Source: a virus
Lineage: Duplodnaviria > Heunggongvirae > Uroviricota > Caudoviricetes
DNA: 23,396 nucleotides
Virus record (IMG/VR): IMGVR_UViG_641522625_000005
Reading direction: 5' to 3' (one strand)
In this document: piece by piece, positions 1,532 through 23,396 of the stretch
Numbering within the stretch: the stretch's first letter is position 1
Layout of the letters: each line of letters begins with the position of its first letter
Made by a program: the position numbers and the translations under genes
The notes under the pieces: generated by a model
Database searches by the model: none
The model's input: the letters and a program-made list of their open reading frames with translations, nothing else
Told to the model about the DNA's origin: nothing

Positions 1532-1741
1532 TTAATTTGAATACAATGCAATTCTCGAGGACTGAAGTTTCTCGCAATTAAAATTTATCAGTTTTACTTT
1601 CTGCTCTCTGGAAACGCCTGCTTCTTTTTTACCTGAGAGCATTTTTTCGCATTCTGATTTCGTTAGTTTAGATTTTGAATATCTTGTCCAGTTAGTAGGA
1701 GTGCCACCTTCCTTTTCAATAGTGGCGGTAATTTTATACAT
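1532..1741 (-). CDS. rcbA: YdaC/RcbA small protein, 69 aa
   Basis: ATG at 1741..1739 (MYKITATIEKEGG...), 69 aa; overlaps the ralR 3' end by 8 nt. Confidence 0.7.
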   Translation of the reverse strand: MYKITATIEKEGGTPTNWTRYSKSKLTKSECEKMLSGKKEAGVSREQKVKLINFNCEKLQSSRIALYSN

Positions 1742-6671: not shown

Positions 6672-7160
6672 ATGTTGGATGTATTTACTCCATTGTTGAA
6701 ACTTTTTGCTAACGAGCCACTCGAAAGACTTATGTATACGATTATCATTTTTGGTCTCACTCTCTGGCTGATACCGAAAGAGTTTACTGTCGCATTCAAT
6801 GCTTATACTGAAATACCTTGGCTCTTTCAGATTATCGTTTTTGCCTTTTCTTTCGTGGTCGCCATTTCCTTCTCAAGATTGCGAGCACATATTCAAAAGC
6901 ATTATTCATTACTACCAGAGCAACGAGTATTGCTTCGTTTATCTGAGAAAGAAATCGCTGTATTTAAAGATTTCCTTAAAACAGGAAATCTTATTATCAC
7001 TTCTCCTTGCCGTAACCCGGTTATGAAAAAATTAGAACGGAAGGGCATCATTCAACATCAGAGTGATAGCGCAAACTGTTCTTATTATCTCGTCACCGAA
7101 AAATACTCCCATTTTATGAAGTTATTCTGGAACAGCAGGAGTAGACGTTTTAATCGTTAG
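6672..7160 (+). CDS. sieB: SieB superinfection exclusion protein, 162 aa, membrane
   Basis: ATG at 6672 (MLDVFTPLLKLFANEPLERLMYTIIIFGLTLWLIPKEF...), hydrophobic N-terminal segments; stop TAG 7158..7160. The ORF-track 5' extension to 6549 is unlikely. Confidence 0.8.
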   Translation: MLDVFTPLLKLFANEPLERLMYTIIIFGLTLWLIPKEFTVAFNAYTEIPWLFQIIVFAFSFVVAISFSRLRAHIQKHYSLLPEQRVLLRLSEKEIAVFKDFLKTGNLIITSPCRNPVMKKLERKGIIQHQSDSANCSYYLVTEKYSHFMKLFWNSRSRRFNR

Positions 7161-7626: not shown

Positions 7627-7670
7627 ACTATAGGTAATGCCTAATTGATTGTCAATAGGCTATGCCTAAT
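7627..7670 (-). promoter_or_regulatory. Leftward PL-like promoter with overlapping operator (OL-like)
   Basis: On the minus strand: -35 TTGACA (complement of 7650..7655), 17-nt spacer, -10 TATAGT (complement of 7627..7632). Embedded in a 26-bp element (7645..7670) that is the inverted near-copy of the element at 8295..8320; repeated TGCCTAAT motifs. Confidence 0.6.
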
Positions 7671-7765
7671 GTTTTGAGCGTAACCTAATAGGTGATGGCG
7701 ACAGCAGAAAGTGATGGGGGGGTTAAATAACGGAATCCAGGAGTTTTCCGTCAGACCATATAAGT

Positions 7766-8242
7766 TTAAGTTCCAGTTTTTGTGATGTTCTGGCTTTTCC
7801 GTTCAGATTCAAGAGCTTTCAGATACTTACCCACTTTCATTTCCATCGCTGCTATGTAGGCGCGAACATCGTGGTCAACCCAATCTGGTTCTGTAGCATT
7901 TCCAGATAACAGGAAAGCTACAATCGCTCTTATTTCATCAGAGGCTGCTTGATAAAGGTTGTTTATATCTAAAAGTTCACTTTTTGTATCTGAATTGGTG
8001 GGGGTTGGTATGGGGTATTCGTTAAGCCCCCAATGCTCTGGACCAACAACATCAGAAAAGAAACGCCATAATTCTGGAAGTTTATCTTTACTTATAGAGC
8101 CTTTCTTAATCCAGTCATAAATTGATGGTGGTTGGACTTTAAAGTGGCGTGCGACCTCCGCCTTTGATTTGACGGATCCCGATGCGATTTTTTTGTTAAT
8201 GGCCTGCTCTATCGCTCGGCCTAAGTCTTTACCACTAAGCAT
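7766..8242 (-). CDS. racR: RacR prophage repressor (CI-like), 158 aa
   Basis: 158-aa ORF, ATG at 8242..8240 with AGGAG RBS; N-terminal HTH-like segment (SKAEVARHFKVQPPSIYDWIKKG); divergent from Cro-like ydaS. Confidence 0.9.
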   Translation of the reverse strand: MLSGKDLGRAIEQAINKKIASGSVKSKAEVARHFKVQPPSIYDWIKKGSISKDKLPELWRFFSDVVGPEHWGLNEYPIPTPTNSDTKSELLDINNLYQAASDEIRAIVAFLLSGNATEPDWVDHDVRAYIAAMEMKVGKYLKALESERKSQNITKTGT

Positions 8243-8294
8243 TGCTTAATATTCTCCTATGCGCATTACATTAGGCAATCCCTACCCTTACTGC

Positions 8295-8339
8295 ATTAGG
8301 CACAGCCTATTGACAATTGCGTTAGGCGTCGCCTAATAT
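8295..8339 (+). promoter_or_regulatory. Rightward PR-like promoter with overlapping operator (OR-like)
   Basis: -35 TTGACA 8310..8315, -10 TAATAT 8334..8339 (18-nt spacer) about 27 nt upstream of the ydaS ATG; ATTAGGCA/TTAGGCG repeats; 26-bp element ATTAGGCACAGCCTATTGACAATTGC. Confidence 0.65.
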
Positions 8340-9119: not shown

Positions 9120-9977
9120 ATGCTGTTTGTGCTTATTCTAAGCCACCGGGCAGCATCATACGGGGCAATTATGGCCGCATTACCATACATGCAACTGTAC
9201 ATAGCTGATTACCTGGCTGACACCATGCATTTGTCAGCAGAGGAGCATGGTGCGTATTTGTTGCTGATGTTCAATTACTGGCAAACAGGAAAGCCAATAC
9301 CTAAAAACAGGCTGGCAAAAATTGCCCGTCTGACTAACGAGCGATGGGCTGATGTTGAACCATCCTTGCAGGAGTTTTTTTGCGATAACGGCGAGGAATG
9401 GGTGCATCTTCGGATTGAGGAAGATCTGGCATCAGTCAGGGAAAAATTAACCAAAAAATCAGCCGCAGGAAAAGCATCTGTTCAGGCCAGAAGAAGCAGA
9501 AAGGAAGCAGATGTTCAAACAAAACAAGAGAGAAATTTAACAGGTGTTCAAACAGATGTTGAAGTGGTGTTTGAACATGATGTCAACACAAAGGCAACTA
9601 ATAAAGATACAGATAAAGATCTAAAAACAGATCCCCCCCTAAATCCCCCCCGGGGGAATCGAGGTGTCAAAAAGTTTGACCCTCTGGATATTACTTTGCC
9701 GAACTGGATTTCTGTCTCGCTTTGGCGTGAGTGGGTTGAATTTCGCCAGGCATTGCGAAAACCGATTCGAACGGAGCAGGGCGCTAACGGGGCGATACGG
9801 GAGCTGGAAAAATTCCGCCAGCAGGGTTTTTCACCTGAGCAGGTGATTCGACACAGCATCGCCAATGAATACCAGGGCTTGTTCGCGCCGAAAGGTGTTC
9901 GACCTGAGACGTTACTCCGACAGGTTAACACCGTCTCGTTACCGGATAGTGCGATCCCGCCAGGCTTCAGGGGGTAA
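9120..9977 (+). CDS. ydaU: YdaU, putative replication initiator (O-like position), 285 aa
   Basis: 285-aa ORF directly upstream of the DnaC-like gene; contains an internal iteron/AT-rich cluster in a low-complexity K/D/T/P linker. The ATG at 9120 has a weak RBS; the internal ATG at 9171 is an alternative start. Confidence 0.8.
   Translation: MLFVLILSHRAASYGAIMAALPYMQLYIADYLADTMHLSAEEHGAYLLLMFNYWQTGKPIPKNRLAKIARLTNERWADVEPSLQEFFCDNGEEWVHLRIEEDLASVREKLTKKSAAGKASVQARRSRKEADVQTKQERNLTGVQTDVEVVFEHDVNTKATNKDTDKDLKTDPPLNPPRGNRGVKKFDPLDITLPNWISVSLWREWVEFRQALRKPIRTEQGANGAIRELEKFRQQGFSPEQVIRHSIANEYQGLFAPKGVRPETLLRQVNTVSLPDSAIPPGFRG
9508..9660. repeat. Iteron cluster + AT-rich tract + C7-TAAAT-C7-G5 tract (candidate prophage origin inside ydaU)
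   Basis: ATGTTCAAACA at 9511..9521, GTGTTCAAACA at 9544..9554, inverted copy TGTTTGAACA at 9568..9577, degenerate GATGTCAACACA at 9579..9590; then AT-rich 9593..9632; then CCCCCCC (9633..9639) TAAAT CCCCCCC (9645..9651) GGGGG (9652..9656). Confidence 0.45.
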
Positions 9978-14454: not shown

Positions 14455-15483
14455 ATGGCAGAGCAAACCTCGCGTCTCGCAATAATTATTGATAGCACTG
14501 GAGCGAAAAATAATGCTGACAATCTGACCTCCTCATTAGTCAAAATGACGCAGGCTGGGGAAACTGCTGCAAATAGCGCAGGGAAAGTGACTAAGGCAAC
14601 AGAAGATGAGAAGAACGCGCTCGCAAAATTAAAAGCAGCTATTGATCCAGTTGGTGCCGCAATTGATACTGTCGGTCGACGCTATTCTGAATTAAAGAAA
14701 TTTTTCGATAAAGGGCTTATTGATAAAGAAGAATATGAATTTCTTGTCCGTAAACTTAATGAAACCACAGAGGAATTGAGCGGGGTTGCGCAAGCGCAGA
14801 GAGAAGCCGAGAAGGCCGGAAAACTTGCTGCCGCTCAGCAGGAAGCGCAGGCTCAGGCCTTTCAAAGAATGCTGGACAAGATCGACCCTCTGGCTGCGGC
14901 GCTAAGAAATCTTGAACAACAGCATGATGAACTTAATGCTGCGTTTGCATCCGGGAAAATAAATGGTTCTCAGTTTGAGAATTATAGCCGAAAAATACAG
15001 GAAACACGGCGAGAGCTTACCGGAGAGGCTCAGGCAGAGCGAGAAGCAGCAAAAGCGCATGATGAACAGGTTGTTGCTTTGCAACGTCTGATTGCTCAAC
15101 TTGATCCTGTCGGAACTGCTTTTAATCGTCTGGTAGAACAACAGAAACAGCTCAATGAAGCAAAAGCTAAGGGGATGCTTTCTCCTGAAATGTATGAGGA
15201 GCTTTCTGGAAAACTTCGTGCTATGCGGAGTGAGCTTGAGGTTACTCAATCACAATTAAGCAAAACCGGAATGTCGGCAAAACAAACGGCTTTTGCTATG
15301 CGCATGTTGCCTGCACAAATGACGGATATTGTTGTTGGGTTGTCCACTGGTCAGTCGCCATTTATGGTGTTAATGCAGCAGGGCGGCCATTCAGCTATGC
15401 AGGAGACAAGAATCGCCAGCTTACCCGTTACAGCGATACCCGCTGGCATGAAGATTCCGTGCGTAACCGCTGGTTCAGCGTGA
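14455..15483 (+). pseudogene. tmpR: Tape measure protein, N-terminal about 310 aa only (3' end deleted; ORF tail is out-of-frame lom DNA)
   Basis: ATG at 14455 with AGGAG RBS; coiled-coil-rich N-terminus and ...[13 protein letters not shown], recalled as similar to lambda H; similarity stops near 15385. Confidence 0.8.
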
Positions 15484-15599
15484 TGGTGGGGCCGTCTGTG
15501 CGCGTGAATGAATGGTTCAGCGCGTATGCGATGGCGGGTATGGCTTACAGCCGTGTGTCGACTTTCTCCGGGGATTATCTCCGCGTAACTGACAACAAG
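15363..15599 (+). pseudogene. lomR: Lom/Ail-family outer membrane protein, 5' fragment (N-terminus deleted, then interrupted by IS5)
   Basis: Frame 0 reads ...[57 protein letters not shown] up to the IS5 end. Confidence 0.7.
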
Positions 15600-16795
<1,196 letters not shown>

Positions 16796-16985
16796 CAAGG
16801 GGAAAACGCACGACGTGCTGACCGGAAGTGATGACGGTCGCCACAGCAACACGTCTCTGGCGTGGGGAGCTGGCGTGCAGTTTAACCCGACCGAATCCGT
16901 GGCCATTGATATTGCTTATGAAGGCCCCGGCAGTGGCGACTGGCGCACTGACGGTTTCATCGTGGGTGTCGGTTATAAGTTCTGA
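16796..16985 (+). pseudogene. lomR: Lom/Ail-family outer membrane protein, 3' fragment
   Basis: ...GKTHDVLTGSDDGRHSNTSLAWGAGVQFNPTESVAIDIAYEGPGSGDWRTDGFIVGVGYKF, stop TGA 16983..16985. Confidence 0.75.
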
Positions 16986-17011
16986 TTAGCCAGGTAACAC
17001 AGTGTTATGAC

Positions 17012-17039
17012 AGCCCGCCGGTTCAGGCGGGCTTTTTTG
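17012..17039 (+). terminator. Rho-independent terminator after lom
   Basis: GCCCGCC (17013..17019), loop GGTTCA, GGCGGGC (17026..17032), then TTTTTT. Confidence 0.6.
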
Positions 17040-17049
17040 TGGGGTGAAT

Positions 17050-20000
17050 ATGGCAGTAAAGATTTCAGGTGTACTGAAAGACGGCACAGGAAAACCGGTA
17101 CAGAACTGCACAATCCAGCTGAAAGCAAAACGTAACAGCACCACGGTGGTGGTGAACACGCTGGCCTCAGAAAATCCGGATGAAGCCGGGCGTTACAGCA
17201 TGGACGTTGAGTACGGTCAGTACAGCGTTATTCTGTTGGTGGAAGGATTCCCGCCGTCACATGCCGGGACCATTACCGTGTATGAAGATTCTCAACCCGG
17301 TACGCTGAATGATTTTCTCGGTGCCATGACGGAGGATGATGCCCGTCCGGAGGCACTGCGCCGTTTTGAACTGATGGTGGAAGAGGTGGCGCGTAACGCG
17401 TCCGCGGTGGCACAGAACACGGCAGCCGCGAAGAAGTCAGCCAGTGATGCCAGCACATCAGCCCGTGAGGCGGCAACCCATGCGGCTGATGCTGCGGACT
17501 CAGCACGCGCAGCCAGCACGTCAGCCGGACAGGCCGCGTCGTCGGCTCAGTCAGCGTCTTCCAGCGCAGGAACGGCATCAACAAAGGCCACTGAAGCATC
17601 AAAAAGTGCTGCCGCTGCAGAGTCCTCAAAAAGCGCGGCGGCCACCAGTGCCGGTGCGGCGAAAACGTCAGAAACGAATGCTTCAGCGTCACTACAATCA
17701 GCAGCCACATCTGCATCCACCGCGACCACGAAGGCATCAGAAGCTGCGACCTCGGCCCGGGATGCGGCGGCCTCAAAAGAAGCGGCAAAATCATCAGAAA
17801 CGAACGCATCATCAAGCGCCAGTAGTGCAGCTTCCTCGGCAACGGCGGCAGGAAATTCCGCGAAGGCGGCAAAAACGTCCGAGACGAACGCCAGGTCTTC
17901 TGAAACGGCAGCGGGACAGAGCGCCTCGGCTGCGGCAGGCTCAAAAACAGCGGCTGCGTCGTCTGCCAGTGCAGCGTCAACAAGTGCCGGGCAGGCCTCA
18001 GCCAGTGCCACCGCCGCCGGAAAATCGGCAGAAAGCGCCGCATCGTCTGCTTCAACAGCCACAACGAAGGCTGGCGAAGCCACTGAACAGGCCAGCGCAG
18101 CAGCGAGGTCTGCTTCCGCAGCGAAGACATCCGAAACGAACGCGAAAGCGTCGGAAACAAGCGCAGAATCCTCAAAAACGGCTGCCGCATCGTCAGCCAG
18201 TTCGGCGGCGTCATCGGCATCATCGGCGTCTGCTTCAAAAGATGAGGCGACCAGACAAGCGTCAGCAGCGAAGAGCAGCGCCACGACGGCATCCACGAAG
18301 GCGACAGAGGCTGCTGGCAGTGCGACGGCGGCAGCTCAGAGCAAAAGTACGGCGGAATCCGCGGCAACGCGCGCCGAGACAGCAGCTAAACGGGCAGAGG
18401 ATATTGCATCCGCCGTGGCGCTTGAGGATGCAAGTACGACGAAAAAGGGGATAGTACAGCTCAGCAGTGCGACCAACAGTACGTCTGAAACGCTGGCGGC
18501 AACGCCAAAGGCAGTAAAATCAGCCTATGACAATGCAGAGAAACGTCTGCAGAAAGACCAGAACGGCGCTGATATACCCGATAAGGGATGCTTCCTGAAC
18601 AACATTAACGCGGTCAGTAAAACAGACTTTGCTGATAAGCGTGGTATGCGTTATGTGCGGGTTAACGCTCCTGCAGGTGCAACATCTGGAAAATATTACC
18701 CTGTTGTTGTTATGCGTTCTGCTGGCTCAGTAAGCGAACTGGCATCAAGAGTCATTATCACCACGGCAACGCGAACCGCAGGCGATCCGATGAATAACTG
18801 CGAGTTTAACGGATTTGTTATGCCTGGTGGCTGGACTGACAGGGGGCGTTATGCTTATGGCATGTTCTGGCAATATCAAAACAATGAACGAGCCATTCAC
18901 TCAATAATGATGAGTAATAAGGGCGATGATTTGCGCTCTGTGTTCTATGTTGATGGCGCTGCTTTCCCTGTTTTTGCGTTTATTGAAGATGGCCTGTCAA
19001 TATCCGCACCTGGTGCTGATCTCGTTGTTAATGATACGACCTATAAGTTTGGGGCAACAAATCCGGCGACTGAATGTATCGCGGCGGACGTTATCCTTGA
19101 TTTTAAGAGTGGGCGTGGTTTTTATGAGTCTCATTCGTTAATCGTTAACGATAACTTGTCGTGCAAAAAACTTTTTGCCACAGACGAAATTGTAGCGCGT
19201 GGTGGTAATCAGATTCGAATGATAGGTGGGGAGTATGGTGCATTATGGCGTAATGATGGCGCTAAAACTTACCTGCTGCTTACCAATCAAGGTGATGTTT
19301 ATGGTGGCTGGAATACATTAAGACCGTTTGCTATTGATAACGCAACCGGCGAACTGGTTATTGGAACCAAACTGTCCGCAAGTCTGAACGGTAATGCATT
19401 AACAGCAACAAAGCTGCAAACGCCAAGACGGGTTTCTGGTGTTGAGTTTGATGGTTCCAAAGATATTACTTTAACCGCCGCGCATGTGGCTGCTTTTGCC
19501 AGAAGGGCAACGGATACATATGCCGATGCGGATGGTGGCGTTCCATGGAATGCCGAATCTGGCGCTTACAATGTCACCCGCTCTGGCGACAGCTATATTC
19601 TGGTTAACTTCTATACCGGAGTCGGAAGTTGCCGGACCCTGCAGATGAAGGCGCATTACAGAAATGGTGGTCTGTTCTACCGTTCTTCAAGAGACGGTTA
19701 TGGTTTTGAGGAAGACTGGGCAGAAGTTTATACCTCGAAAAATCTTCCACCAGAAAGCTACCCAGTCGGCGCACCAATCCCGTGGCCATCAGATACCGTT
19801 CCGTCTGGTTATGCCCTGATGCAGGGGCAGGCTTTTGACAAATCTGCTTACCCGAAACTTGCAGCCGCTTATCCGTCAGGCGTGATCCCTGATATGCGTG
19901 GCTGGACGATTAAGGGCAAACCTGCCAGTGGTCGGGCCGTATTGTCTCAGGAACAGGACGGCATTAAATCGCATACCCACAGCGCCAGCGCATCCAGTAC

Positions 20001-20412
20001 AGATTTGGGGACGAAAACCACATCGTCGTTTGATTACGGCACTAAATCCACGAATAACACCGGGGCACATACACACAGTGTGAGCGGCTCTACAAACTCG
20101 GCTGGAGCACACACACACTCACTAGCCAACGTGAACACGGCTAGTGCTAACTCCGGTGCTGGTAGTGCATCAACAAGATTGTCTGTTGTGCATAATCAAA
20201 ACTATGCAACATCATCTGCTGGCGCACATACCCACTCACTGTCCGGCACTGCTGCAAGCGCAGGTGCACACGCGCATACTGTCGGTATTGGTGCTCATAC
20301 GCACTCCGTTGCGATTGGTTCACATGGACACACCATCACCGTTAACGCTGCTGGTAACGCGGAAAACACCGTCAAAAACATCGCATTTAACTATATTGTG
20401 AGGCTTGCATAA
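17050..20412 (+). CDS. stfR: Side tail fibre protein, 1120 aa
   Basis: ATG at 17050 ([27 protein letters not shown]...); long Ala/Ser-rich repeat region; C-terminal GAHTHS His-x-His repeats; stop overlaps the tfaR start (TAATG). Confidence 0.9.
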
Positions 20413-20987
20413 TGGCATTCAGAATGAGTGAACAACCACGGACCATAAAAATTTATAATCTGCTGGCCGGAACTAATGAATTTATTGGTGAAGGTGATGC
20501 ATATATTCCGCCTCATACAGGTCTGCCAGCAAACAGTACCGATATTGCACCGCCAGATATTCCGGCTGGCTTCGTGGCTGTTTTCAACAGTGATGAGTCA
20601 TCGTGGCATCTCGTTGAAGATCATCGGGGTAAAACGGTTTATGACGTGGCTTCCGGCAACGCGTTATTTATTTCTGAACTCGGTCCGTTACCGGAAAATG
20701 TTACCTGGTTATCGCCGGAAGGGGAGTTTCAGAAGTGGAACGGCACAGCCTGGGTGAAGGATACGGAAGCAGAAAAACTGTTCCGGATCCGGGAGGCGGA
20801 AGAAACAAAAAACAACCTGATGCAGGTAGCCAGTGAGCATATTGCGCCGCTTCAGGATGCTGCAGATCTGGAAATTGCAACGGAGGAAGAAATCTCGTTG
20901 CTGGAAGCATGGAAAAAGTATCGGGTATTGCTGAACCGTGTTGATACGTCAACTGCACAGGATATTGAATGGCCAGCACTGCCGTAG
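20412..20987 (+). CDS. tfaR: Tail fibre assembly protein, 191 aa
   Basis: ATG at 20412 overlapping the stfR stop; 191 aa, the typical Tfa position. Confidence 0.9.
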
Positions 20988-21084
20988 GGTAAAACATATA
21001 AATTCTATAATTAGATGTATCTTTCCATTTACGGCAAGGAAGGGGGCTTGGAAGACGTAAAGCATCTCACACCGAGATTATTTT

Positions 21085-21675
21085 TTATATGTCAGGTGTC
21101 TGAAGTTTTGCTTTGGCTCTTAAAATGGTTTGCCGCGAGGTTTTGAATTCCCGGGCAATGGCACTTATACTTACACCTGACTTAATTCGTTCGAATACCA
21201 CCTGTTTCTGTTCTTCATTTAACACAGGAGGTCGACCAAAACGTTTCCCTGCGCCGCGGGCTCTTACTATCCCGGAATGAGTGCGTTCAAGTAAAAGGTC
21301 TCGTTCAAATTCAGCGACTGCTGAAATTACTTGCATCATCATTTTTCCTGTTGGACTGGTCAGGTCAATGCCACCCAATGCTAAGCAATGCACTCTGATA
21401 CCTGTTTCGGTCAGTTGTTCCACTGTTTTCCTGATATCCATTGCATTACAACCAAGGCGATCCAGTTTTGTCACAATCAATTGATCACCACATTTCAGGC
21501 GAGCAAGCAACCGGTTAAAACCAGGACGCTCACTGGTTGCTGCTGAGCCGCTAATGTGTTCTTCGATTATTTGCTGAGGTTTGATTTTAAAACCTGCACT
21601 TTCGATTTCCCGGCGTTGATTTTCGGTGGTCTGATCCAGCGTTGATATCCGACAGTAAGCAAAAATTCGAGACAT
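21085..21675 (-). CDS. pinR: Serine-recombinase DNA invertase (Pin/Gin/Hin family), 196 aa
   Basis: N-terminal catalytic region [23 protein letters not shown]... (Ser in RIST) and C-terminal HTH; convergent with tfaR. Confidence 0.9.
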
Positions 21676-21991
21676 AGTGAGACTCTATACGAAATTGGTG
21701 TTCATATCATAATGCATCTCAGAAAATAATTATGATTATTTTTGTGCATATTTGTATGTACACGTTCGAAAATAAACGAATGCGTATGCAACCCCGTAAT
21801 TTTGGTGAGACCCAAAATCGATTTTGTGAAAAATGGCTTTAACTCGGTTTGTTTTTCGAGTTCCGGGCGGACTCAAGGAAGAAGAATAGTGTTGCGTGTT
21901 ATTTTAACCAGATTTCAAGTTGTTTGGTCGTGGAAAAGTGGAGCAAAATGTTGTTAAAGTGGAAAAATGATAAAAAAGTAAGTTTATTATA

Positions 21992-22225
21992 TTACATTTT
22001 ACCATTTAAATTTTGGTTGTCTTTAAGAACTGATATCGCTGTTTGTAATAATTCTTTGTTATCCAGCCATGATGTTTTCTTTATGTTTCCTTCAATGTAA
22101 TCAAGCAATGTTCTGGTATTGATAGGTCTTCCCTGTTTTGCTACTTCCACTACAGCATCCCCTAGGATAATTCTTACTTCAGGAAGCTGCGCAGGGAACC
22201 ACTTTAGGGTGTCTTTTGATTTCAT
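21992..22225 (-). CDS. ynaE: YnaE small protein, 77 aa
   Basis: ATG at 22225..22223 preceded by AAGGA; an in-frame ATG at 22258 would give 88 aa. Confidence 0.7.
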   Translation of the reverse strand: MKSKDTLKWFPAQLPEVRIILGDAVVEVAKQGRPINTRTLLDYIEGNIKKTSWLDNKELLQTAISVLKDNQNLNGKM

Positions 22226-22347
22226 GAAGATATTCCTTAAAATATTATTGATTTTCATTGCGATATTGTATGTCTGATTCAGGATATGTTGACTTATACA
22301 TCGGTTTTGTCTGGGTTATTGGATATGCCAATCCCTAATTTTATTAG

Positions 22348-23396
<1,049 letters not shown>

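Follow-up and report, generated by a model that had tools for sequence, protein, structure and literature searches.

The right-hand part of the window (the whole stretch of DNA analysed, 23,396 nucleotides) carries two insertion sequence (IS) copies in opposite orientation, copy 1 on the minus strand and copy 2 on the plus strand. Between them lie 5552 bp (16796-22347) that hold tail fibre, recombinase and cold-shock genes. Gene calls were taken from the annotated identical NEB10-beta and MG1655 loci, and a window coordinate equals the coordinate in the matching-genome locus plus 9399.

Features of the locus

15390-15599, plus strand: lomR 5' fragment (Ail/Lom outer-membrane protein pseudogene, broken by copy 1), from the NEB10-beta/MG1655 annotation
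15596-15599, no strand: target-site duplication CAAG left of copy 1, read from the sequence and equal to the right-hand CAAG
15600-16795, minus strand: IS copy 1, a complete ISKpn26-type IS5-family element of 1196 bp and the Rac-resident K-12 copy, from terminal repeats and PGAP (the NCBI annotation pipeline); right inverted repeat (IRR) at 15600, left one (IRL) at 16795
15747-16727, minus strand: copy 1 transposase, 326 aa, open reading frame (ORF) intact, from the ORF list and Pfam (DDE_Tnp_1 7.7e-36, DUF772 3.2e-21)
16796-16799, no strand: target-site duplication CAAG right of copy 1, read from the sequence
16797-16985, plus strand: lomR 3' fragment, from the annotation
17050-20412, plus strand: stfR, Rac side tail fibre gene, from the ORF list and annotation
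20412-20987, plus strand: tfaR, tail fibre assembly gene, from the ORF list and annotation
21085-21675, minus strand: pinR, serine invertase/resolvase-family recombinase, from Pfam (Resolvase 2.5e-36, HTH_7 3.8e-11) and annotation
21992-22225, minus strand: ynaE (PGAP label ydfK), cold-shock protein paralogue, from the annotation
22294-22347, minus strand: ynaM C-terminal fragment of a small-protein gene split by copy 2, from the annotation (ynaM is intact in MG1655)
22344-22347, no strand: target-site duplication TTAG left of copy 2, read from the sequence; its right-hand partner falls beyond the window end, at window-equivalent 23543-23546
22348-23396, plus strand: IS copy 2, canonical IS5, truncated by the end of the window after 1049 of its 1195 bp; from the IRL at 22348 and identity to MG1655 IS5
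22416-23396, plus strand: copy 2 transposase, 326 aa (338 aa if started at the ATG at 22380), from the ORF list and Pfam

The original prediction had placed both copies and their orientations correctly to the base (copy 1 at 15600-16795, copy 2 from 22348), and its flanked segment of about 5.5 kb with stfR, tfaR, pinR and ynaE agrees with the annotation, to which we add the lomR 3' fragment and the ynaM fragment. The Rfam family IS009 maps within tfaR, at 20755-20953.

Positions 15400-23396 are 100% identical in NEB10-beta, EPI300, GB2005 and other records. This part of the window is very probably where the defective Rac prophage of a DH10B-type Escherichia coli K-12 strain has its right end, and two different IS5-family elements have each entered it by a simple insertion independent of the other. 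The two-IS arrangement in the DH10B-type Rac prophage is already annotated and ordinary.

Two distinguishable IS5-group elements

Both copies have the length and ends of the IS5 group, at about 1.2 kb with 16-bp terminal inverted repeats GGAAGGTGCGAA(C/T)AAG; both ends of copy 1 were read inside the window, and for copy 2 the left end was read in the window and the right end from the matching genome. Each copy holds a single DDE transposase ORF of 326 aa (Pfam DDE_Tnp_1 at about 7e-36, DUF772 at about 3e-21), and each is flanked by its own 4-bp target-site duplication, CAAG on both sides of copy 1 and TTAG on both sides of copy 2. The terminal repeats of copy 1 read GGAAGGTGCGAATAAG at 15600 and GGAAGGTGCGAACAAG (the reverse complement) ending at 16795. 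Copy 2 in the matching genome is 1195 bp long and ends at window-equivalent 23542, followed by TTAG; the end of the window coincides with the stop codon of its transposase (23396).

A full alignment of the two copies gave 91.4% identity (103 differences over 1198 columns), rising to 94.7% in the transposase coding sequence (52 of 981 positions differ). Aligned as an inverted repeat, the arms comprise 985 nt at 95% and 51 nt at 88%. The differences are concentrated at the ends, and the longest identical tract spans 173 bp (16099-16271 against 22872-23044). Among the changed codons 40 are synonymous and 8 non-synonymous, so that the 326-aa proteins differ at eight residues (T14S, T38V, A39E, K214E, K249R, N254H, V315A and Q326H); over their first 47 nt the two transposase genes show exactly 4 mismatches, as had been estimated from the sequence. 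We rejected a reading of the copies as the same IS or as recent duplicates, near-identity not extending over the full length (91.4%, with the right end of copy 1 at about 80% to canonical IS5). The earlier statement that they are distinct, diverged isoforms whose proteins differ at several residues is thereby upheld and can be sharpened to an ISKpn26-type copy 1 and a canonical IS5 copy 2.

Copy 1 is assigned to the ISKpn26 type from its PGAP label ('IS5-like element ISKpn26 family transposase') and from ISKpn26-annotated copies in E. coli, rather than from the ISfinder type sequence. ISKpn26 is a 1,196-bp member of the IS5 family that makes a 4-bp duplication (PMC8023600), and copy 1 resembles it in its length of 1196 bp, its 4-bp duplication and its diverged right end, which recurs in about 2,500 E. 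coli records, most of them carrying the ISKpn26 label, at 95-100% identity. Against canonical IS5 this right end (191 nt, window 15600-15790) reaches only 79.8%. ISKpn26 itself is best known from Klebsiella pneumoniae plasmids and from acrR and mgrB insertions. Over the compared region 15400-17000, copy 1 differs from the MG1655 Rac copy at a single nucleotide (window 16088, T versus C), which changes the transposase by E214K; this change belongs to the laboratory lineage and is unlike ISKpn26.

The IS5 at yghO/yghQ in MG1655 and copy 2 agree at 1195/1195 positions, and the copy 2 transposase has the accession of canonical K-12 InsH (WP_000019403.1). The target motif of IS5 is YTAR (PMC10359306), which TTAG fits; CAAG of copy 1 (CTTG on the other strand) is one base off YTAR on either strand. 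Copy 2 thus shares sequence, transposase accession and a YTAR-type 4-bp duplication with the canonical insH copies of K-12, and only its location, ynaM in Rac, differs.

Possible inversion of the enclosed segment

An inverted IS pair could serve as a substrate for homologous recombination, so that the 5.5-kb tail-fibre/invertase segment flips within a population. The geometry permits this, since the inverted arms of about 1.2 kb are 91% identical and include the perfect tract of 173 bp, longer than the roughly 25-30 bp that RecA-dependent recombination needs in E. coli as its minimal processing segment. We nevertheless regard such flipping as very unlikely. A synthetic inverted junction of 4196 nt (lomR side, IS and reverse-complemented ynaE/pinR side) was searched against 5,426 complete E. 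coli genomes and matched at no place at >=80% coverage, the best match (64%) being uninverted flank plus IS. All 15 genomes with both copies are in the window orientation and collinear with the window (15/15), and the inverted junction was found in 0/5,426 genomes; finished assemblies are consensus sequences in which a minority isoform in a culture is invisible, and 15 both-copy genomes give low power for a rare inversion. The 8.6% divergence of the arms, of a kind that strongly lowers recombination via mismatch repair, and a recA1 host also disfavour the event; DH10B-type strains are recA1, and we take this status for the source strain from DH10B rather than from the window. Nor would a flip have an obvious phenotype, since it would leave stfR intact in a prophage that is defective anyway.

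The IS pair would in principle permit RecA-dependent inversion or composite transposition, and both should be rare given copies that are 8.6% diverged and share no identical tract longer than 173 bp, in a recA1 DH10B host. There is a slim chance, by our estimate, that a recA+ background or transposase acting on the outer ends yields occasional inversion or transposition of stfR-tfaR-pinR-ynaE, which would leave DH10B-type cloning hosts with a structural polymorphism that has gone unnoticed, and that the clustered divergence (a 173-nt identical core with diverged ends) records past recombination between IS5 and ISKpn26 lineages.

The locus also carries its own invertase gene. As in the Mu Gin/G segment, P1 Cin and e14 Pin, the Rac serine invertase gene pinR adjoins a tail fibre gene and an assembly gene; unlike the Mu, P1 and e14 switches, the Rac locus has no alternative fibre cassette. 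A Din-family (Hin/Gin/Cin/Pin) switch was taken to require, besides an invertase, alternative fibre C-termini flanked by a pair of 26-bp crossover sites in inverted orientation. We found no match to a AAACCNNGGTTT-type crossover core at <=1 mismatch and no convincing inverted-repeat pair for a Pin-type switch, only short, weak repeats as expected by chance, and the gap between tfaR and pinR is only 97 bp. The invertase is present without a crossover-core match, credible inverted repeats or a second fibre cassette, and we rejected a switch of this family here. The pairing of pinR with the tail fibre genes is unrelated to the IS bracketing.

The composite-transposon reading and the history of the two insertions

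The 7.9-kb unit (IS, stfR-tfaR-pinR-ynaE, IS) might instead be a composite transposon, acquired or movable as one piece. Like Tn10 (IS10) and Tn5 (IS50), it has two inverted IS copies, cargo genes between them and intact outer ends, here with the same 16-bp terminal repeat GGAAGGTGCGAATAAG, and neither transposase ORF is broken, each encoding a DDE domain. The Rac pair is unlike Tn10 and Tn5, however, in consisting of different, separately inserted elements with no shared outer duplication and no sign that the unit ever moved. The outermost tetranucleotides do not match (CAAG next to copy 1, TTAG next to copy 2), whereas the two 4-bp sequences around each individual IS do; the insertions were therefore separate, and movement of the unit as a composite never took place. 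The genes in between belong to Rac itself, and MG1655 and MC1061, compared here as strains lacking one insertion, have copy 1 and the cargo and no copy 2. A search of the 5.5-kb segment against 72,556 plasmids gave no high-identity copy: the matches are homologous lambdoid tail regions only, at <=97.5% identity, and some of these entries are really chromosomes or phage-plasmids listed among the plasmids. No second context was found in the 5,426 E. coli genomes or in these plasmids. The unshared outer duplications and the copy-1-only strains refute past movement as a composite unit, and we give the composite reading as a whole almost no credence.

The suggestion in the original prediction that the pair inverts or mobilises the segment therefore found no support, in contrast to its claim of distinct isoforms: the junction searches, the uniform orientation, the plasmid search and the separate duplications all speak against it. 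No strain in the available data shows a rearrangement, the outcome that the prediction had itself named as contradicting it, which leaves inversion as only a generic possibility.

A single duplication at the locus followed by divergence in place, or decay of copy 1 from a K-12 IS5, is a negligible prospect: the copies share the IS5 group, termini that agree over 12 bp and a central region with hardly any differences, but copy 2 matches another K-12 IS5 at 100% and copy 1 at only 91.4%, the sequence type of copy 1 is widespread in wild E. coli as ISKpn26, both chromosomal and plasmid-borne, and these ISKpn26-type right ends together with the 1195/1195 match of copy 2 refute both versions. The coding changes are mostly synonymous (40/48 changed codons) and the copy 1 ORF is intact; this points to a separately evolving functional lineage, not to decay.

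The two copies are independent insertions, decades to ages apart, and their opposite orientation and 'bracketing' of stfR-tfaR-pinR-ynaE are a coincidence of two events, with no functional unit. In the first step, a 1196-bp ISKpn26-type element inserted into lomR and duplicated CAAG. The lomR/copy 1 junction was present in 334 genomes in the E. coli genome search, and because these include MG1655, MC1061, ER1709 and DHB4 the insertion is old and probably predates the divergence of K-12 laboratory stocks. In the second step, a resident canonical IS5 of 1195 bp entered ynaM just downstream of ynaE, duplicating TTAG. MG1655, MC1061, DHB4 and ER1709 match the window only up to 22347, the base before copy 2 starts. 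The only direct consequences of the two insertions would be the disruption of lomR and ynaM.

The importance of the arrangement is low, with no new mechanism or gene function implied. It documents an extra canonical IS5 in ynaM of the DH10B-type Rac prophage and illustrates K-12 as the host of two distinguishable IS5-group elements. The ynaM::IS5 junction occurs in 15/5,426 complete E. coli genomes, including known DH10B derivatives. Other strains that seemingly share the ynaE/ynaM-IS junction were rejected, their insertions really lying elsewhere (CT02, IS5 in a Qin-type pin gene; DLI.5a, ISKpn26 in ydfJ). The junction is a handy lineage marker, which flags a 'DH5a'-labelled record and a lake-isolate derivative as DH10B-type at this locus.

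Two IS5-family elements in inverted orientation

Two IS5-family copies, one in lomR and one in ynaM, lie in opposite orientation where the original prediction had placed them. They form an inverted repeat of 985 nt at 95% and 51 nt at 88%, and their termini and flanking tetranucleotides were located as follows:

15600-16795, minus strand: copy 1, 1196 bp, with IS5-type termini GGAAGGTGCGAA(T/C)AAG at both ends
15747-16727, minus strand: copy 1 transposase, a 326-aa ORF from the ORF list
From 22348, plus strand: copy 2, preceded by TTAG; the window stops at its transposase stop codon, 23396

Copy 1 has CAAG on either flank, and in the full genome copy 2 extends to 1195 bp, with TTAG again on its far side. 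Both transposases retain intact DDE_Tnp_1 and DUF772 domains (Pfam).

The copies had been read as distinct isoforms and not recent duplicates, rightly so: full-length global alignment gave 103 differences in 1198 columns, 5 gap columns among them (91.4% identity), and the roughly four differences noted in the first 47 nt of the transposase genes number exactly four. The 981-nt CDS holds 52 differences (94.7% identity), 36 of them in its first 426 nt, with 40 codons changed synonymously and 8 non-synonymously (copy 1 to copy 2: T14S, T38V, A39E, K214E, K249R, N254H, V315A and Q326H). The non-coding ends are far more diverged, with 16 differences in the first 100 alignment columns and 27 in the last 98. 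A perfectly identical 173-nt tract (16099-16271 and 22872-23044), set against IS ends that are 16-27% diverged, exceeds expectation under evenly spread differences (permutation p about 0.002); past IS5/ISKpn26 recombination or dual-coding constraint could explain this core. The tract overlaps a conserved 122-aa antisense ORF (16083-16451, plus strand; 22692-23060, minus strand).

Copy 2 is identical at 1195 of 1195 positions to the MG1655 IS5 at yghO/yghQ, the two share transposase accession WP_000019403.1, and the TTAG duplication conforms to YTAR, the target reported for IS5 (PMC10359306). The MG1655 element itself has no matching duplication (TTAA versus CTAA at 402-409 and 1605-1612 of L003, the yghO/yghQ locus) and yghQ is truncated, a configuration consistent with an IS5-associated deletion or rearrangement there.

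Copy 1 is annotated in NEB10-beta and MG1655 as 'IS5-like element ISKpn26 family transposase', and in length and 4-bp duplication it fits the published description of ISKpn26, an IS5-family element of 1,196 bp that generates a 4-bp duplication (PMC8023600). Its most diverged 191 nt (15600-15790) recur in E. coli on chromosomes and plasmids, mostly under the label ISKpn26 (1,591 records at ≥99% identity and a further 895 at 95-99%), whereas canonical IS5 copies reach only 79.8% over this stretch. At 16088 the window has T and the MG1655 Rac copy C, a single G-to-A change on the transposase strand that converts E214 to K near the SADAGY motif; both the MG1655 Rac copy and canonical IS5 have E here, and judged from these sequences K is not ancestral. 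Across the stretch with 16088, MC1061, ER1709 and DHB4 are 100% identical to the window, and therefore evidently carry the change too.

Locus and history of the arrangement

Positions 15400-23396 match E. coli NEB10-beta, EPI300, GB2005, the HE_ and CM series and a few others at 100.0% identity over the full length. The NEB10-beta annotation identifies the right half of the defective Rac prophage, in the order ydaU, ydaV, trkG, ynaK, ydaY, ynaA and lomR' before copy 1; 'lomR, stfR, tfaR, pinR, ynaE (labelled ydfK) and 'ynaM in the 5552 bp between the copies; and ynaM', uspF, ompN and nifJ after copy 2. ydaU is frameshifted in that annotation (1-578 of L001, the NEB10-beta locus) and is an intact 285-aa ORF in the window (9120-9977), whose source may thus be a DH10B-type record other than NEB10-beta.

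The two junctions differ in distribution. The lomR::IS junction (15250-15950) was found at ≥80% coverage in 334 genomes, in agreement with 340 for the long query at the same threshold, and the records listed include MG1655, MC1061, ER1709, DHB4 and further K-12 laboratory strains. Only 15 records contain the whole pinR-ynaE-ynaM::IS5 junction (21400-23396), at about 100% identity; among them are NEB10-beta, EPI300 and GB2005, which are DH10B derivatives. In MG1655, MC1061, DHB4, C3026 and ER1709 the 100% match breaks off after query position 6948 (window position 22347), the base immediately before copy 2; MC1061, the ancestor of DH10B, is thus without this copy. The 15 records also include CP076470 (labelled 'DH5a') and CP110859 (TSW4848-W1, a lake-isolate derivative), which suggests mislabelling or a DH10B-type recipient background.

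Each IS has its own perfect duplication, the tetranucleotides beyond the outer ends differ (CAAG versus TTAG) and copy 2 is restricted in distribution; the arrangement therefore reflects two separate simple insertions. The second was recent: a resident IS5 transposed within the genome while the DH10B lineage was already in laboratory use. On the sequence evidence, the bracketing is coincidental and does not mark a transposon acquired in one piece.

In wild strains, IS5 or ISKpn26 has inserted independently into the homologous end of Qin-type prophages. Inspection of apparent IS5-type matches near ydfK/ynfT in CT02 and DLI.5a lent no support to a common hot spot at the ynaM position: the CT02 element lies inside pin (L004, 1186-2975) and that of DLI.5a in ydfJ, at a Qin-type prophage end (L005, 3136-4116).

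Inversion, mobilisation and the pinR invertase

The inverted pair had been proposed to invert or mobilise the enclosed segment. We modelled the left junction expected from homologous recombination between the copies as a 4196-nt query (the IS, joined on one side to 1500 nt from ynaA/lomR and on the other to 1500 nt, reverse-complemented, from ynaM/ynaE/pinR). Searched against all 5,426 complete E. coli genomes, the query was nowhere covered to ≥80%; its best matches, at 64%, were uninverted flank plus IS. The 15 genomes that carry both copies each align collinearly with the window in one piece. Among plasmids the 5.5-kb segment matched no record at ≥99%, the matches being homologous lambdoid tail regions, none above 97.5% identity. 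These three results therefore count against the proposal: within the available data, no strain is rearranged at these junctions.

In E. coli, two copies that are 8.6% diverged and share at most 173 bp of uninterrupted identity could still undergo rare RecA-dependent exchange, but mismatch repair strongly suppresses such homeologous exchange, and DH10B-type strains are recA1. Nor would an inversion have any evident effect, since it would leave stfR intact in a prophage that is defective. The proposed inversion or mobilisation is a textbook possibility that finds no support in the 5,426 genomes. Public records already annotate both IS elements.

pinR is a genuine member of the resolvase/invertase family (Pfam). 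The enclosed segment contains no second fibre cassette and only short, weak inverted repeats, the tfaR-pinR gap is 97 bp, and a search for a Din-type crossover core found none. The tail-fibre/invertase association is a remnant, unrelated to the IS bracketing.

Rfam matched IS009, a candidate small RNA, within the 3' half of tfaR (20755-20953, plus strand; 220.9 bits), and RalA, the antitoxin sRNA of the RalR toxin in the type I toxin-antitoxin system of Rac (1557-1735, plus strand; 225.1 bits). A 35-nt inverted repeat, 83% complementary (7648-7682 and 8283-8317), lies either side of the racR ORF (7766-8242, minus strand), and its arms may be paired operator or regulatory regions around the repressor gene.
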